A stretch of DNA of 64,000 bases from Scenedesmus sp. PABB004 (lineage: Eukaryota): contig JABVCE010000019.1 in the NCBI GenBank assembly GCA_014905635.1, positions 186,001-250,000 of the forward strand, in the 5' to 3' direction. The position numbers and the translations under genes are program-made. Below the pieces are notes generated by a model that worked only from the letters and a program-made list of their open reading frames with translations, had not been told where the DNA came from and ran no database searches. The number at the start of each line of letters is the position of its first letter. The first letter of the stretch is position 1. This document shows, piece by piece, positions 32,764 to 40,158 of the stretch.

Positions 32764-34211
32764 TGCTGCTGCTTCTGCTGCGTGGCAGCGGCCGCGGCCG
32801 CCGCCGCTGCGGCCGCCTCTGCCTGCTGCCGCTCCCGCTCCAGCTCGGCTCTGCTCTTGGGCAGCCGCGCCTGAGGGTACCTGCGGCGGCGGCCGTGGGC
32901 GGACGCGCGCGAGCCGCCGCGCCGCGGCCGCGGGGTCGGCCGTGGCCGCGCCCCGGCGCGCGAGGCCCCGCGCACACAAGTACCTGCGCAGCACATGCAT
33001 GATGATGTTGTCGGTCTTCACCCAGCGCTCGTGCTCCGCGCCGCTGAGCACCTCCGGCACCGGGACCGGCCTGGGCGCGGACGGCGGCGCGCCCGGCGCG
33101 GCGGCGCCGGCCGCCGCCGCGGCGGCGCCGCCGAGCGCGAGCCCGCCGCCCGCCGGCGCCGCGTCGTCGTCCGCGTCCGCCGCCGCGACGCGGTCGAGCT
33201 GCGCCTGCTGCAGCGCCTCCTGCTCGCGCAGGTGCTCGCGCAGCACCTTGGGCAGCGGCGCGAGGTCGGCCTGGCGTGGCGGGGGGGGGGGGGGGGGGGC
33301 GGGCGGCGGCGGCGGCGGCAGGGCATGGGTGGTGGCGGTCCGCACGCGGCGCCCCCTCCTTGCCAGCCGCCCCTCCTGTGGCGGCCCCTGGCACGCAGGG
33401 CCGCGGCCGGCGGGGGAGGGCGCCGCGCACCTTGAAGCGCGCGAAGCCCTCGTGCACATGGTGCATCGCGCGGCGCAGCCGCGCCGACACAACCGCGTGC
33501 AGGCTGGGCGCCTGCGGCGGGCGGCGCGCGGCGGGGCGGCGTCGCTCGAGCCCGACGCCCGCGGCGCCGCGCCGCCCCACGCTCGCCAGGGACGGTGCGC
33601 ACACGCGCGTCTCGATTGACCGCGCGCCGGCGCGCAGCGCTGCTCCAGGGCCTCCCTGCCTCCCTCCCTCCCCCCGGCCGCGCGCAGCGCACCGCACCTG
33701 GTAGGTGAAGCGCTGCCCGCCCAGGATGTAGTAGTAGGCTTGCACCGCCGTGCGCACCGGGTGCGCCGACGTGCGCACCTGCCGGCGCACGACAAAGAGG
33801 TGCGGCTCGGCCGCCTGCGCGAGCGCAAACTCGGTCGTGTGCAGCGGCATCGCGCTGCGGCGGCGCGGCGGCGGCGCGCGCGTCAGCCGCGGCGGCGGCG
33901 GGCAGCGCGCTGCGCTGCGGCATCGGGCGGCTCCGGCCGGGCGCGGCGCGCGGGGGCGCGCGCGCGCGCGGCGCAGCGCGCCTCAGGTGTGCCTCATTGG
34001 AGGGGTCGAGCCGGCGCGCGCGCGCGGCGTGGTTGTTGGACGCGGGGTCGTAGAAGGGCGAGAATTCAAAGTACTGCAGCGCCGTGGCGCGGTCCAGGGG
34101 GTTGTAGGGGTAGGCCGGGTCGCTCCAGCGCTGGTGCGCGGCGCCGTCGCCGCCGTCGACGCGCACGGGCGGCGGCGCCGCCGGCGCCGGCGGCGCCGCC
34201 GGCGCGGCCAT
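32006..34211 (-). CDS. MED6: Mediator of RNA polymerase II transcription subunit 6, with a low-complexity C-terminal extension
   Basis: ALQYFEFSPFYDPASNN, EPHLFVVRRQVR, YYYILGG..TYQ/APSLHAVVSARLRRAMHH are MED6 family motifs. The last exon MRLKIKFNKK... ends at 32006. Confidence 0.85.
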
Positions 34212-35028
34212 CGCGCGGCGCGGCCTCTGGCGGGGCGCGACGGGGCCCAGGAGGAGGGGGGAGGGGGGCGTCGGCGGGGAGGGCCGCGGCACAGGCGTCG
34301 GCGCCCGGGCGCGGCGGTTGCCGCGCGGCCGCGCGAGGGCAGCGGCGGCGCGGAGCGCTCGTCGGGCGGCGCCGCGCGGCCCCGTGCGCGTGCCCGGTGT
34401 CAAGGGCGCAGATCGCGGCGCGGGGGCGCGGGCTGGCGCCGGGACAGGGCGGGGCGGCGGCGCAGGCGAGCGGAGCTACTGCTCCGCCGGCCCCGGCTCA
34501 CCGATGCTGCCCAGGCGGGCCCCGCTGCGCCTCGAGTCGGTAACCTGGACCCGGGAGAGCGCGGGGCGGAAGCGCAGGGGCGGCGCCGAGCGGCGGCGGC
34601 GGCGGTGCTGGGTGCGGCGCGGAGGGCGCAGCGGCGGCGGCGAAGCAGCGCGCCGGCGGCGCGGCGAGAAGCGAGGGTGCGGGGTGCGGGAACTGCGGTG
34701 GGAGTGCCGCGCTCTGGGCCCGCCCCTGCAACGCGTGCCGTCGATGAACCCTTGCTCGTGTGACAGCTCAAGCGACGCGCCGGAGGTCGCCGCGCCGCCG
34801 CCCCCTGTTGCTGCGCACACCCACGGCTCCCGCTCCCCAGCTCACGCGCCGCCGCCGTCCGTCCACGCCGACAGCCCCACCGCGCCGCGGCGCGCCTGCG
34901 ACCGGCGCAGCAGCAGCAGCGAGCGCCGCCGCTGCCGGCCGTCCGGGGGGCGCAGCGGGCGCTGGATCGCGGGAATCTGCGCAGCACGTGGTGGCGCACG
35001 GGGGACGCAGCGCGGACCGCGGGACGCC

Positions 35029-36578
35029 ATGCCGCGCGCCACGACGCTCGCCAAGACTGGGGCACATGAGGAGGGCGTCTGGGCTGTGGCGTGGCTGCCG
35101 GGCGCCCACTCCCTGCTCACGGGCAGCGTGGACGAGAGCGTGAAGCTGTGGAGCGCCGCCGACGACAAGCTGGCCTGCGGGCACACCTACACGGGGCAGG
35201 CGCTCGGCGTGATCTCGCTGGACGTCTCCGGCGGCCACGCGGTGTCCTCCTCCATCGACTCCACCATCCGGGTGTTCGGCGTCGACGGCGACAAGAGCGT
35301 GAAGCACATCATCGAGCGCCAGCCGACCGAGAGCTGGGGCGCCGCGTTCGGCACCGTCACCGAGAGCAGCACGCAGCTCGCGGTCGCGGGCGGCAGCAAG
35401 GGCCAGGCCCTCACCTACCGCGGCTCCGAGGAGGAGCCCGGCCTGGAGCTGGCCCTCGACCTGCCGGCGGTGCGCGGCGGCGCGCGCACGCGCGGGGCGC
35501 GTACGCGCGGCCGGCCGCGGCGGCCGCCGCGCGTCGCGACTCACGGCCCCGCCGCCCGCTGCACCCGCGGCCGCGCGCAGCCCGAGGGCGCCGGCGGCGC
35601 CAAGAAGGAGCGGTTCGTGCTGTGCGTGGCCTTCAGCCCAGGTGGGGCGGGCGGCCGGCCGGCGACAGCTCAGCGCCGGCCGTCGGCGGCGGCGCAAGTC
35701 CGCGGCGCAGGCCGCCGCCGACGCGCCGCGCCCGCCGTGTGCGCGCAGACAAGCGCCTGCTCGCCGCCGGCGCGATGGACGGCACGGTCGCGGTGTGGGA
35801 CCTCGGGTCGGGCGGGCAGCTGCTGCACATGGCCGGCCTGAAGGGCCACCACAAGCCTGTGCGCAAGCTCGCATTCACGCCCGGTGCGACGCTGACGTCC
35901 CGCGTCCCCGCGCCGCCCGCGTTGCCCGCGCGCGCCGCCGCGCGCCCGCTCGCGCCGTCGCGCCGCTGCGCCCCGCCGCACTGAGACCCATGCCGCCGCC
36001 GACGCCGCGCGCCGACACGGTCAGACTCGAAGCTGCTGCTGACGGCGTGCGATGACATGCACACCAACCTGTATGACGTTCACCAGGGCGCCCTGGTCGA
36101 CTCCTTCTCGGGTGCGCGGCGCGTCGCCGCGCGGCGGGCCAGCCGCGCCGCCGGCGTGCGCCGCCCTGCGCCGGGGCCCGGGCGCGGCGCGCGCGCGTCG
36201 TCGTGACGTCTCCGGCCGCCGCCGCCGCCGCCGCCACGGCCGCAGGCCACGAGTCGTGGGTGCTGGACGTCGCGGTGCACCCTGAGGGCGGCGTGTTTGC
36301 GACGGCGAGCAGCGACGCCAAGGTGCGCGGCGCGGCAGCCCCCCGCCCACCGCGCGGCGCAGCAGCGGCCGCCTGGCCCGCGCCCATGCCTTCGCTCCCG
36401 CGCCGCGCCGCCGCGCCGCGCGGCGCAGGTCCAGCTCTGGGAGCTGTCGAGCCGCAGCCTGGTGCAGACGATCGGCGAGCACAGCGACCAGGTGTGGGGC
36501 GTCGCGTTCAGCAGCGACGGCACGCGGCTCGCGAGCGTGGGTGACGACAAGCAGCTGGTGCTGTACAGCGTAGCGTGA
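35029..36578 (+). CDS. SKI8: WD40 protein SKI8/WDR61/VIP3
   Basis: AHEEGVWAVAW, LLTGSVDESVKLW, GQALGVISLD, SSSIDSTIRVF, GHHKPVRKLAF, LLTACDDMHTNLYDV, GHESWVLDVA, EHSDQVWGVAF, LASVGDDK. Confidence 0.88.
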
Positions 36579-36839: not shown

Positions 36840-38892
36840 TCAGCAGCACGCCGTGGCCAGGAACTCGACCGCCGCCTCGACGTCGCAGTTGCACTCGCGC
36901 AGCGCGTCCAGCGCCTTGGCCCGGCTGTACCCCATCTCACCGAGCTGCGCGACGCCCGCCTCCAGCGCGACCTGCGCGCCGGCGGGGCGTGGACGCGCCG
37001 CGCGTGGACGCGCCGCGGGCGCGGCGCGGGCGCGGCACGGCACGGCGCGCTGAACGCGCCGCCGGGCGACGTGCAGCGCCGCACACACACCTGCATGAGC
37101 TCCTGCAGCATGCCGCCGCCGTCGCCGCCGCCGCGGTCGCCGCCGCGCCGGCCGCCGCCGCGCCGCGCCGCCGCGCGCTGCAGGAACGAGGCCTCGCTGT
37201 CCGGCGCGCCGTCGTCGTCGTCGCCGTCGTCCAACTGCGGGCCCCTGCCGCCGCGCGCGCGCTTCTTCGCTGCGCCGGGCGCCTTGCCGCCCGCGGACCT
37301 GCGAGGGGTGGCGCGGCGAGCGAGGGCGCGGCTCGCCGCCCGCCGCGCTGCCGGCGGGCGCGAGCCATCCCTCGCGACGCCGCACCTGCTGCCGGCCTTG
37401 CCGCTGCCCTTGCCGCCGCCGCCCTTGCCGACGCGGCCGCCCGGCCGCAGCAGCAGGTTGGCCCTGCCCGGCCGGTTCTCTCTGCGGGCCGGCCGGCGGC
37501 GGCGCGTGTCGCGTCAGGCGGCCCTGCCGCGGGCCGCGCGCCGGCGCCTCTCCCCCGGCCGCCCCCCGCCGGCCGGCGCGCACTTGGCGTCGCTGCCGTC
37601 CGAGTCGGCCACGCCCGCGGCGGCGCCCGCCGCCGCCGCCACCGCCGGCAGGCCTTGCAACACCCAGCTCGGCGGCTGCGCCTGCTGCGCCTGCTGCACG
37701 TACGTCGCCTGCGCCGCCAGCCCCGGCTGCGCCGCCGCGCGCGCCAGCAGCTGCGCCAGGCGCGCGTGCAGCGCGCACACCAGCAGCTGCTTCTGCTGCG
37801 TCGGCAGCTGATCGGCGTCGCACTCTGCGGCGCGGGGCGAGCGTGGGCAACCGGCAGCGGCGGCTGCAGCGCGGCACGGCCTTGCGAGCGCGCGCTCCCG
37901 CCCCGCAGCCTGCCCCGCTGCCGCCGCCGACCCTGCTGCCGCGCCGCGCGCGCGCACCCATGATGTCGAGGTCTGCCGGCAGCGGCTGCACCGCCGGCGG
38001 CGCGCCGGCCGCGGGCCGCGCCGCCTGCGCCGCCGCCGCCGCCAGCTCCTCCAGCGCCGCCTCGGCCTCGCGCTGCTGCTCCGCCGTCAGCTCATACCTT
38101 GGGCGCGGCGGGCGGGCGGCGGGCGCGCTCGCTGAGCGCCGAGGGGCGGGCTAGGCGTCGCATGCGCCGGCGCTGCTGCCTTTGCTGCCGCCCCGCCGTG
38201 AGGCGAGCCCACAGTCATGTCTCACTTGGCCTTGACCTCCTGGTGCCACTGCAGCCGCATCTCCTTCGTCGGGTTGGCTGCGGCGGCGCGGGCGCGGGCG
38301 CGCGGCGGTGGTGGGCGCGGCGCCGACGCGTCGCAGCGGCGGCGGCGGGCGGCGCGGTGCGCGCGCGCGCGTGCGCGCGCGCCGCTCACGGCCGCTCCAG
38401 ATGACGAGTCCGTTCTTCCGCACGGCGTCGGCCTTGGCGTCGTTGTCGGCGCGCACGCGGTCGACGTCGACACGCAGGCCGGAGAACGCTGCGGCGCGCG
38501 CGCCGTGTGCACCGCGTGCGGCGTGGGGCGGCGGCTCGCCTACGCGCGAGGGATGCCCGCGCGCCGCCCGCAGCGGCGCGCGCGCACGCGCACCCGCCAG
38601 GCTCTGCTGCCCCAGCAGGCGCTGCGTGGCGCCGTTGAGCTGCTGCACGAGCTTGCCCGGCAGCAGCCCGGTCGCCTGGATCGCCACCCACTGGCCCACG
38701 CCGTGCTTCATGATGCACAGCTTGAGGATGAGGCACTCCTCCTTGGTCCAGCCGGGGCTGGGCGTGAAGTTCCAGCTGGCGGCGGCGGCGCGGCGCGGTT
38801 GGTGCGGCGCCGCGCTGCTGCTGCGGCGCCGGCAGCGCGGCGGCGCCTCACAGCGACGCGGCGTCGCCGATCTTGGGGCCGCGCTTGTCCAT
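36840..38892 (-). CDS. Probable p1 (AMTP1)-like subunit of the MTA1c/AMT1 DNA N6-adenine methyltransferase complex, with a C-terminal UBA domain; 8 exons
   Basis: Spliced KIGDAASLWNFTPSPGWTKEECLILKLCIMKHGVGQWVAIQATGLLPGKLVQQLNGATQRLLGQQSLAAFSGLRVDVDRV...RKNGLVIWSGPNPT matches my recollection of the ciliate p1 Myb/HTH-like core. The last exon VAQLGEMGYSRAKALDALRECNCDVEAAVEFL is a UBA domain. Intron phases are consistent throughout. Confidence 0.72.
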
Positions 38893-39125
38893 GGTGCGCG
38901 AGCGAGCGCCGCGCGGGCGCCGGGCAGCAGCAGTGGCGGGCGCCGAGCAGCGGGCGGCGCGGCCGTGTCGAGCAGCGGCGGCGCCGTGCGTCGTCTGCGC
39001 GGGCGTCCGACGAGCGGTGTGGTGGCCACCGACGGGAGCGGAGAAGGGGCGGGGGCGCCTCACCAGCTGCGTCAGAATTCAAAGCGCCGCGTCTCAACTC
39101 GCTCAACCGCCCGCCGCCGCACGGC

Positions 39126-40158
39126 TCAGCCCCGCGCCGCGTTACCGCCACCGCCGCCGCCGCCGCGCGCCGCCGAGACCGCCGCCGCCAGCAGGACGCG
39201 CGCCTCGGCCGCGAGCGGCGCCAGCAGCGTGCCGCCCGCGCCCCAGGCCGCGCCCGCGCTGGTGCCAACGTCCTCCGCCAGCGCGGCGAGCGCGCCGCAG
39301 CTCGAGAGCGCGGCGAGCGCGTGCGGCCGCCACCGCGCCACCAGCTCCGCCTGCCACGGCTGTGCGGCGCGCAGCACGGCGCGGCGCGGGCGCGGTGCGG
39401 CGCTGTCAGCGCGGCCGCGCCCCGACGCGTGTGCGCACGCGTGCGCACGCGCGGCGGCGGACCCACCTGCAGGCGCACGTGCGGCAGCAGCGCCGACGCC
39501 AGCGAGCAGCTCAGCTCCAGGTGCGTAACGACCGGCTCGCCTGGCAGGCGCAGCGCAGCGCGGCGGGCAGACTGCCTCGGGCGTGTGCGCGGCAACCCGG
39601 GGGGGGCGCGGCGGTGGCCTCGCTCGCACCCGCGTCGCTCTTGCCGAGGCGCAGCCTGACCGTGGTGTGCACGCGGCCCTCGCACGGCGCCGGCAGCAGG
39701 TCCGCCGCCGCCGCGCGCAGCCCCGCCGGCAGCGCCGCGGCGACCGGCGCGAGGGCTGCGGGCCGCGTGCGGCGGCGCGTAGGCGCGGGGCTCTCGGCGC
39801 AGACCGCCGCGCCGCGCGCGCCGCTTGCACGGCCGCGGCCGCGGGCCGCGCGCGCGCGCACGCGCGCCAGGTGGCTGGGCACGTGCTGGTAGCCCGTGGC
39901 AAGCGCGGCGTCGCCGCCCGAGCTCAGGAGCACATCGTCGAGCGCGAGCGCGACGCCTGGCAGCAGCGCGCGCCACACAGCGAGCGCGGCCTCCAGCTCG
40001 GCCGCGCTGTGGGCCTCGCCCAGCGGGTGTACCGCGTCCACGCGCGGGTGGAGCCGCAGCGCCGGCCGCGGCGACGCGCCGCTCGGCGGCGCGGGCGGCG
40101 GCTCGACGCCCCACAGTGCGGACAGGCAGTCGCGCACGCCCTGCTCGCTCACGGCCAT
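39126..40158 (-). CDS. Uncharacterised protein, possible NTF2/SnoaL-like fold
   Basis: MAVSEQGVRDCLSALWG...LHPRVDAVHPLGEAHSAAELEAALAVWRALLPGVALALDDV..., then strand-like segments (GRVHTTVRLRL, VVTHLEL). Coding-like sequence with GT..AG introns. The fold call is inference. Confidence 0.55.

Follow-up and report, generated by a model that had tools for sequence, protein, structure and literature searches.

A stretch of 64,000 nucleotides from Scenedesmus sp. PABB004 (contig JABVCE010000019.1, positions 186,001 to 250,000), which we call the window and whose numbering we use throughout, carries on its minus strand, at 38892-36840, a gene that joins a p1-like N-terminal region to a ubiquitin-associated (UBA) domain at the C-terminus. 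In the MTA1c/AMT1 complex, which maintains N6-methyladenine (6mA) at ApT sites, p1 (AMTP1) is the subunit that binds DNA. The window is about 80% G+C and has open frames on every strand, so an open frame by itself carries no meaning here. By translating the window, we found nine exons that together read as one frame of 396 codons. Each of them has a GT donor and an AG acceptor, and the introns are 76 to 133 bases long. The start codon is the ATG at 38892-38890, and the stop codon is the TGA at 36842-36840. The resulting 396-residue model contains a helical N-terminal region (residues ~15-155), an amphipathic helix (~180-219), a disordered linker, and the C-terminal UBA domain. It is identical to residues 296-691 of a public 691-residue protein, P0001 ("hypothetical protein HT031_005082 [Scenedesmus sp. 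PABB004]"). A first-pass annotation, made from the letters alone, had joined the exons in phase, as we did, but had counted eight of them. It had also placed the UBA exon correctly at 36840-36972, except that the first base of the exon is 36971, bases 36973-36972 being the acceptor AG. The motifs that it quoted, including a KEN triplet and a basic KKRAR patch, are all present in the minus-strand sequence where it had put them.

The first five exons encode the N-terminal region. Exon 1 (38852..38892) contains the start codon and a conserved N-terminal tail with the consensus KRGPKxGDAASL, and it ends in phase 2 at the donor GTGAGG. The homeobox-like/Myb-like DNA-binding domain of p1 lies in exon 2 (38594..38775), with the motifs WNFTPSPGW, LPGK, and TQRLLGQQSL. 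The helical N-terminal region of p1 continues in exon 3 (38390..38488) and in exon 4 (38226..38277), which encodes an NPTKEM segment modeled with a predicted local distance difference test score (pLDDT) above 90. Exon 5 (37958..38097) encodes the last conserved N-terminal helix (KY.LT.EQ ... LEEL), with pLDDT of 83 to 98 up to P0001 residue 450, and then the start of the linker.

We compared the individual exons with the Protein Data Bank (PDB) using phmmer. The 60 residues of exon 2 alone matched three distinct Tetrahymena p1 sequences (7f4l_E, 7yi8_C, and 8xyl_C) with E values of 7.9e-15 to 1.1e-14, query residues 1-59 aligning with p1 17-75. The best match outside p1 was c-Myb (E 8.2e-4), and TRF2 reached 0.04. 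Exon 3 alone matched only the three p1 sequences at E<=10. These matches are weak (E ~1), and they are colinear (query 1-31 with p1 78-108), so that the offset of 2 seen with exon 2 recurs. A profile built from 37 full-length p1-UBA relatives matched p1 with an E value of 5.2e-54 (187.7 bits), in an alignment that can be trusted up to p1 residue ~145 but not in the low-complexity tail. Thus, the match is colinear to p1 residue ~145 and takes in the extended helical region of seven helices beyond the Myb core (p1 1-150).

The predicted structure gave the same result. We made an AlphaFold2 model of P0001 with 46 aligned sequences, and its pLDDT is mostly above 90 over residues 321-450, which are residues 26-155 of the 396-residue model. 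Two of 383 Foldseek matches had E<=0.001, and both were p1 chains (9u9e_C, 7.8e-9; 9o6k_C, 2.4e-7). With VIA-align, the model aligned to 9u9e_C with a Z score of 17.0 and a root-mean-square deviation (rmsd) of 10.8 over 162 of 178 residues (316..497 in P0001 numbering with chain residues 23..185). The alignment to 9o6k_C had a Z score of 14.3 and an rmsd of 2.1 over 113 residues, with 43% identity. The TRF1, TRF2, and c-Myb domains gave Z scores of at most 7.3. We conclude that the N-terminal region is almost certainly a true p1/AMTP1 homologue and that the gene is a p1 orthologue.

The last exon, exon 9 (36840..36971), encodes the three helices and MGY loop of the UBA domain and the stop codon. 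We found that it matches Pfam families PF00627 (E 9.4e-9; 35.4 bits against a cut-off of 22.4) and PF22562 (E 2.8e-8; 34.0 bits against a cut-off of 27). The closest solved sequence is the Ede1 UBA domain, which was crystallized with ubiquitin (2g3q; E 1.1e-4). In the AlphaFold2 model, the three helices span P0001 residues 640-660, 665-674, and 679-690, with pLDDT of ~95. The domain superposes on the Cbl-b UBA of a UBA-ubiquitin complex (2oob_A) with a Z score of 7.3 and an rmsd of 1.4 over 44 of 44 residues and on Mud1 (1z96) with an rmsd of 0.7 over 38 residues. Across the solved UBA domains, Z scores were 6.6 to 7.3 and rmsd values were 0.7 to 1.8 over 38 to 44 residues. The tool warns that Z scores of ~7 are common among small helical domains, so the fold backs the sequence evidence and is not an independent proof. 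In the MG[F/Y] loop, which we take to be the ubiquitin-contacting loop, M, G, and F/Y are invariant among the 37 orthologues (37/37), and another five positions in the helices (A, L, E, A, and L) are kept in 33 to 37 of them. We concluded that the last exon is a canonical UBA domain. This domain has a somewhat better than even chance of binding ubiquitin.

We asked how widely the two domains occur together by scanning 1.84 billion proteins, which gave 457 matches at E<=0.001. Among the best 150 representatives, a UBA-type domain recognized by Pfam forms the last ~40 residues in 14 of the 32 that are at least 241 residues long. In a separate, word-indexed search, a precomputed UBA Pfam domain is present in 41 of the 120 homologues listed and in 40 of the 49 with 280 or more residues, the remainder of the 120 being mostly short fragments. 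The carriers include Tetradesmus, Chlamydomonas reinhardtii (CHLRE_11g467637v5), Volvox, Gonium, Pleodorina, Astrephomene, and Edaphochlamys in the Chlorophyceae; Coccomyxa, Trebouxia, Symbiochloris, Myrmecia, Apatococcus, Auxenochlorella, and Helicosporidium in the Trebouxiophyceae; Bryopsis and Ostreobium in the Ulvophyceae; Chloropicon in the Chloropicophyceae; and Ostreococcus tauri and Micromonas pusilla in the Mamiellophyceae. Two carriers come from transcriptome assemblies, P0161 (a complete open reading frame from MMETSP) and the Chloropicon record P0082, and each has both domains. The 37 aligned proteins, from many genera, have the same domain order, with the UBA domain as the last ~45 residues.

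We also searched with a profile of 14 non-green p1 proteins, which gave 166 matches. Among the best 120 of these, a UBA domain is present in at least 32, and we found no UBA Pfam domain in the named red-algal, amoebozoan, fungal, labyrinthulid, heterolobosean, or ciliate p1 homologues. Neither the UBA exon, searched to E<=10, nor the portion of the 37-protein profile that covers the UBA domain matched Tetrahymena p1.

To place the UBA-bearing proteins, we built a maximum-likelihood tree of 53 proteins from 236 columns with the UBA columns removed. The tree was rooted at its midpoint after a short search, and many of its forks are open. All 33 UBA-bearing rows, together with P0087 (a transcript without a UBA domain), form one clade with a Shimodaira-Hasegawa-like approximate likelihood ratio test (SH-aLRT) support of 93. 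Two state changes suffice to explain the presence of the UBA domain on the tree, against a mean of ~16 in shuffles. This supports a single origin of the p1-UBA fusion, and the tree leaves the order of events unsettled. From the sequences compared here, the UBA domain in all probability resides on the same protein as p1. Thus, the first-pass annotation was right to call the N-terminal domain p1 (sequence E 7.9e-15, profile E 5.2e-54, and structural Z scores of 17.0 and 14.3) and the terminal domain a UBA domain (PF00627 E 9.4e-9, pLDDT ~95, and the MG[F/Y] loop in 37/37). It had named HMMER and AlphaFold with Foldseek as the means of comparison with Tetrahymena p1, and both fit p1 far better than a generic Myb/SANT family. 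It had also called for a survey of chlorophyte orthologues, and p1 with a C-terminal UBA domain recurs across the Chlorophyta.

Four proteins in this set have a distinct placement or architecture. P0102, a 360-residue protein from the haptophyte Diacronema lutheri, is also a p1-UBA protein and is nested within the green clade (a 26-row clade; SH-aLRT 95). The gene could have been acquired from a green alga, or green sequence could have contaminated the assembly. P0180 (Coccomyxa elongata, 700 residues) and P0171 (EukProt, 1064 residues) join the p1 domain to armadillo repeats or tRNA-synthetase domains, architectures that are probably further gene-model merges and not real. P0304 (EukProt comp7598, 394 residues) is homologous to p1, carries a PHD finger (PF00628), and branches outside the UBA clade.

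In Tetrahymena, p1 residues 1-150 form a seven-helix domain with a recognition helix in the major groove, and this domain and MTA1-MTA9 together clamp the DNA (PMC9852454, PMC12485025). We took 15 DNA-contact residues of Tetrahymena p1 from PMC12485025 and mapped them by hand through the alignments. Eight of the 15 are identical here (W45, Q61, R68, Q73, S74, K101, K114, and R117), six of them without variation among the 37 aligned sequences. Exon 4 encodes the residues that correspond to K114 and R117, which contact the DNA backbone, as placed by the profile alignment and the published residue list. In Tetrahymena, Y63 touches the partner strand at its methylated adenine. The residues of the algal model aligned there are 61-62, encoded in exon 2 at window positions ~38632-38637, and the green-algal consensus at this Y63/M64 site is QQLNGQTQRLLGQQSL.

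Exon 6 (37584..37824) encodes a conserved amphipathic helix (model residues ~180-219), followed by an Ala/Gln-rich linker. The pattern of the helix, L..EQ...LL..LR..L, is kept across orthologues, and it lies at a distance from the DNA-binding region similar to that in Tetrahymena p1. In the AlphaFold2 model, the helix occupies P0001 residues 475-514 with pLDDT of ~66 to 81. The structural alignment to 9u9e_C extends into it, to model residue 497 in P0001 numbering and chain residue 185. On the model, this middle helix is a candidate for the equivalent of the helix-turn-helix with which p1 binds the MTA1 N-terminal helix.

The linker that follows (model residues ~225-340; ~120 residues) is predicted to be disordered. 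Exon 7 (37386..37481) is Gly/Lys/Arg rich with pLDDT below 50, and the KEN triplet falls across the exon 6/7 junction. Exon 8 (37091..37298) encodes the KKRAR patch, an acidic run, and a Gly/Arg-rich stretch, all within disordered linker. The KKRAR patch is a putative nuclear localization signal, and a K[KR]x[KR] patch occurs in the linker of 29 of the 37 orthologues. We rejected the KEN triplet as a conserved degron (KEN box), as it occurs in only 4 of the 37. The PCNA-binding PIP box was found in 0 of the 37 green-algal p1 proteins. At the C-terminus, 31 of 37 orthologues have a Cys within their final three residues, and 30 of 37 have one at the second-last position (consensus ...WL..NC[VAI]). 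Both the protein studied here and its Tetradesmus orthologue end in CC, encoded in this alga at 36843-36848. We considered this terminal CC as a prenylation signal, which was not supported; the usual form is a single second-last Cys, which is not known to be a standard prenylation motif.

The closest characterized relative is Tetrahymena thermophila p1/AMTP1 (7f4l_E, 7yi8_C, 8xyl_C, 9u9e_C, and 9o6k_C), whose helical DNA-binding region is homologous over ~130 residues. In both proteins, this region is followed by a helix at a similar distance and then by a long disordered tail. In the Tetrahymena protein, this tail is an acidic stretch without structure (residues 261-360; PMC12485025), with no UBA domain detected in it, whereas the algal linker is rich in Gly, Ala, and Arg and ends in a folded UBA domain. 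Among green algae, MTA1, MTA9, p1 (Cre11.g467637.t1.1), and p2 have been tabulated for Chlamydomonas (PMC12019607, supplementary file 4), and "UBA" occurs 0 times in the text and supplements of that paper. We found that the C. reinhardtii protein Cre11.g467637 (P0190, 507 residues) has the same layout, with p1 at the N-terminus and UBA at the C-terminus, and 78% identity over the 60-residue domain. Its linker is longer, and its closest relatives on the tree are other Volvocales in the same green clade.

Other systems resemble the algal protein in part. The ubiquitin-binding UBA domains of Ede1 (2g3q), Cbl-b (2oob), Mud1 (1z96), RAD23A, and USP5/13 share its three-helix bundle and MG[F/Y] loop. 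They belong to endocytic, proteasome-shuttle, and ubiquitin-enzyme proteins, and none of them is on a DNA methyltransferase subunit. The DNMT1-UHRF1 pathway reads ubiquitylated histone H3 or PAF15. It makes cytosine methylation dependent on ubiquitin, but it belongs to an unrelated enzyme family and serves as an analogy only. The same is true of plant DRM2, a cytosine methyltransferase that depends on UBA domains (PMC2965745). The p1 of ichthyosporeans carries a PHD domain, which the p1 of most eukaryotes does not, and the authors linked this domain to the co-localization of 6mA with H3K4me3 (PMC12695648). There too p1 has gained a domain of the chromatin-reader type, but it is a PHD finger and not a UBA domain, and it is in a different lineage; P0304 fits this description. 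In Tetrahymena, recruitment has been tied to the H2A.Z/H3K4me3 pathways for AMT7 and to PCNA, through a PIP box, for AMT6 (PMC11761967).

We consider it likely, and hold with good confidence, that the gene as a whole is a green-algal p1 orthologue in a form with a C-terminal UBA domain. Its product is probably a member of an MTA1/MTA9 complex in this alga. Several points weigh against this account. Not every UBA fold binds ubiquitin. We assume from other green algae that this one has MTA1 and MTA9, and our literature search found no experiments on any green-algal p1. The exon 8-9 junction in this alga rests on homology and gene models. The match of the middle helix rests on an rmsd of 10.8 over two flexibly linked parts, and the HMMER alignment is unreliable there. 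Finally, seven of the 15 Tetrahymena DNA-contact residues differ here, including the base-touching Y63 and M64, which are N and G, so DNA recognition may differ in detail. The N and G at these positions hint at a different read-out of hemimethylated DNA.

From the p1 homology, the middle helix, the disordered linker, and the UBA domain, we therefore read the protein as a putative clamp, MTA1 dock, tether, and module of the ubiquitin-binding type, the last standing where ciliate p1 has its acidic tail. According to this model, the N-terminal region would place the methylation complex on DNA, and the middle helix would dock on the MTA1 N-terminal helix, as the helix-turn-helix of Tetrahymena p1 does. 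The flexibly tethered UBA domain would then bind ubiquitin, or a ubiquitylated chromatin or replication protein, and this binding would help to recruit or retain the 6mA writer at the right linker DNA. The UBA domain is thus the natural candidate for a recruiting or regulating contact in green algae, and its place on p1 suggests a possible link between ubiquitin signals and adenine methylation. The first-pass annotation had proposed both roles for the UBA domain, a possible reading of ubiquitin and a possible control of turnover. That ubiquitin binding serves targeting rather than stability is plausible, though we would put it at less than an even chance. The further step, that the green-algal 6mA maintenance complex is a ubiquitin reader and that the mark decides where ApT 6mA is copied or kept, is more tentative still. 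For such a reader, the marks that might be bound, also named tentatively, are H2B monoubiquitin at transcribed 5' ends and ubiquitylated PCNA or histone at replication forks.

The strongest alternative is that the UBA domain is not a chromatin reader. It could instead be a stabilizing cap that protects the protein in cis from the proteasome, a turnover handle, or a contact that does not involve ubiquitin, such as dimerization or subunit docking. We regard this as a real but minority possibility. The residues that are invariant in 37/37 orthologues are those of the presumed ubiquitin-contacting loop, and among the nearest solved UBA domains are two that were crystallized with ubiquitin (2g3q and 2oob). 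Both points speak against this alternative; they fit ubiquitin binding but do not tell targeting from stability. In its favor, the UBA domain is always at the extreme C-terminus behind a long disordered linker, as are protective C-terminal UBA domains (PMC3105319). The corresponding region of Tetrahymena p1 is a disordered acidic tail (PMC12485025), so the algal tail may serve regulation and not targeting.

A second alternative to the p1-UBA gene as we model it is that the true gene is the 691-residue public form, with an extra 295-residue N-terminal region upstream. P0001 does bridge an upstream frame to the p1 exons by an intron of ~185 bases (38995-39180, with the upstream part reaching ~40100, minus strand). 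This intron skips an in-frame TGA of the upstream frame at 39127-39125, a stop codon that argues against the longer form. In addition, nearly all orthologues in the 37-row alignment start at most ~26 residues before KRGPKxGDAASL, and Tetradesmus shares the first 14 residues of the 396-residue model, as does P0007. The extra 295 residues have no Pfam match and mostly have pLDDT below 50, although that part had no alignment depth. Because the orthologues lack the N-terminal part of P0001, the public model looks like a merge of two genes ~230 bases apart, and we consider the 691-residue form improbable.

Two other alternatives are less probable still. It is very hard to credit that the N-terminal domain is a generic Myb/SANT or telomere-repeat DNA binder unrelated to adenine methylation: the sole Pfam match is Myb_DNA-binding (PF00249), below threshold both for exon 2 (22.9 bits against a cut-off of 24.4) and for P0001 (17.8 bits; gathering threshold, 24.4), and TRF and Myb domains do superpose at Z ~7, but p1 matches 11 orders of magnitude better than c-Myb (E 7.9e-15 versus 8.2e-4), Z scores are 14 to 17 versus ~7, and the homology extends ~130 residues beyond and around the Myb core. 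Since p1 outscores c-Myb in both sequence and structure, the idea that a generic Myb family fits better fails, and we ruled out that identity. Likewise, there is scarcely any chance that the UBA exon is transcribed separately or results from an artifact of gene prediction; the linker exons 6-8 are of low complexity and their splice sites are backed only by frame and GT-AG, but the same two-domain order is found in the 37 aligned proteins and in transcriptome assemblies, and the UBA-bearing proteins form one clade on a tree made without the UBA columns.

The p1-UBA gene is convergent with a WD40-repeat gene on the plus strand (~34114-36575), with ~265 bases between the stop codons. The WD40 gene gives propeller matches of the THOC3/WDR3/Prp19 type. 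Farther along, a frame on the minus strand (33021-34475) matches the Mediator subunit Med6 with an E value of 1.8e-6 (28.2 bits against a cut-off of 27). Among 28 neighboring frames, Pfam detected no MT-A70 domain, and the domain matches were confined to the WD40 gene and the Med6-like frame.

The first-pass annotation had regarded the link between p1 and UBA as undescribed. This holds for the connection itself, as we found no text that joins the two; it does not hold for the parts, since p1 orthology has been tabulated and databases name a "UBA domain-containing protein." A full-text search found no literature joining p1 orthology with UBA, and the UBA domain may already appear in Supplementary Fig. 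5 of PMC12695648, a figure of p1 domain architectures. Green-algal p1 orthology and the database annotation of UBA are thus known already. The p1-UBA protein is a conserved green-algal variant of a known subunit, and its novelty is moderate.

This finding bears on the targeting of the eukaryotic 6mA writer, outside the ciliates, to the linker DNA that lies just downstream of active transcription start sites. A folded domain of the reader type, tethered to the DNA-binding subunit and kept throughout the Chlorophyta, makes a concrete candidate for the element responsible for recruitment or regulation. Chlamydomonas is well suited to testing this, as both the orthologue Cre11.g467637 and 6mA mapping exist there. 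If the UBA domain were dispensable, the finding would shrink to the annotation of a hypothetical protein and the correction of a merged public gene model. If the UBA domain is a ubiquitin reader, green algae would have invented independently, for adenine methylation, the ubiquitin logic of DNMT1/UHRF1, and their p1 would parallel the ichthyosporean p1 with its PHD finger.

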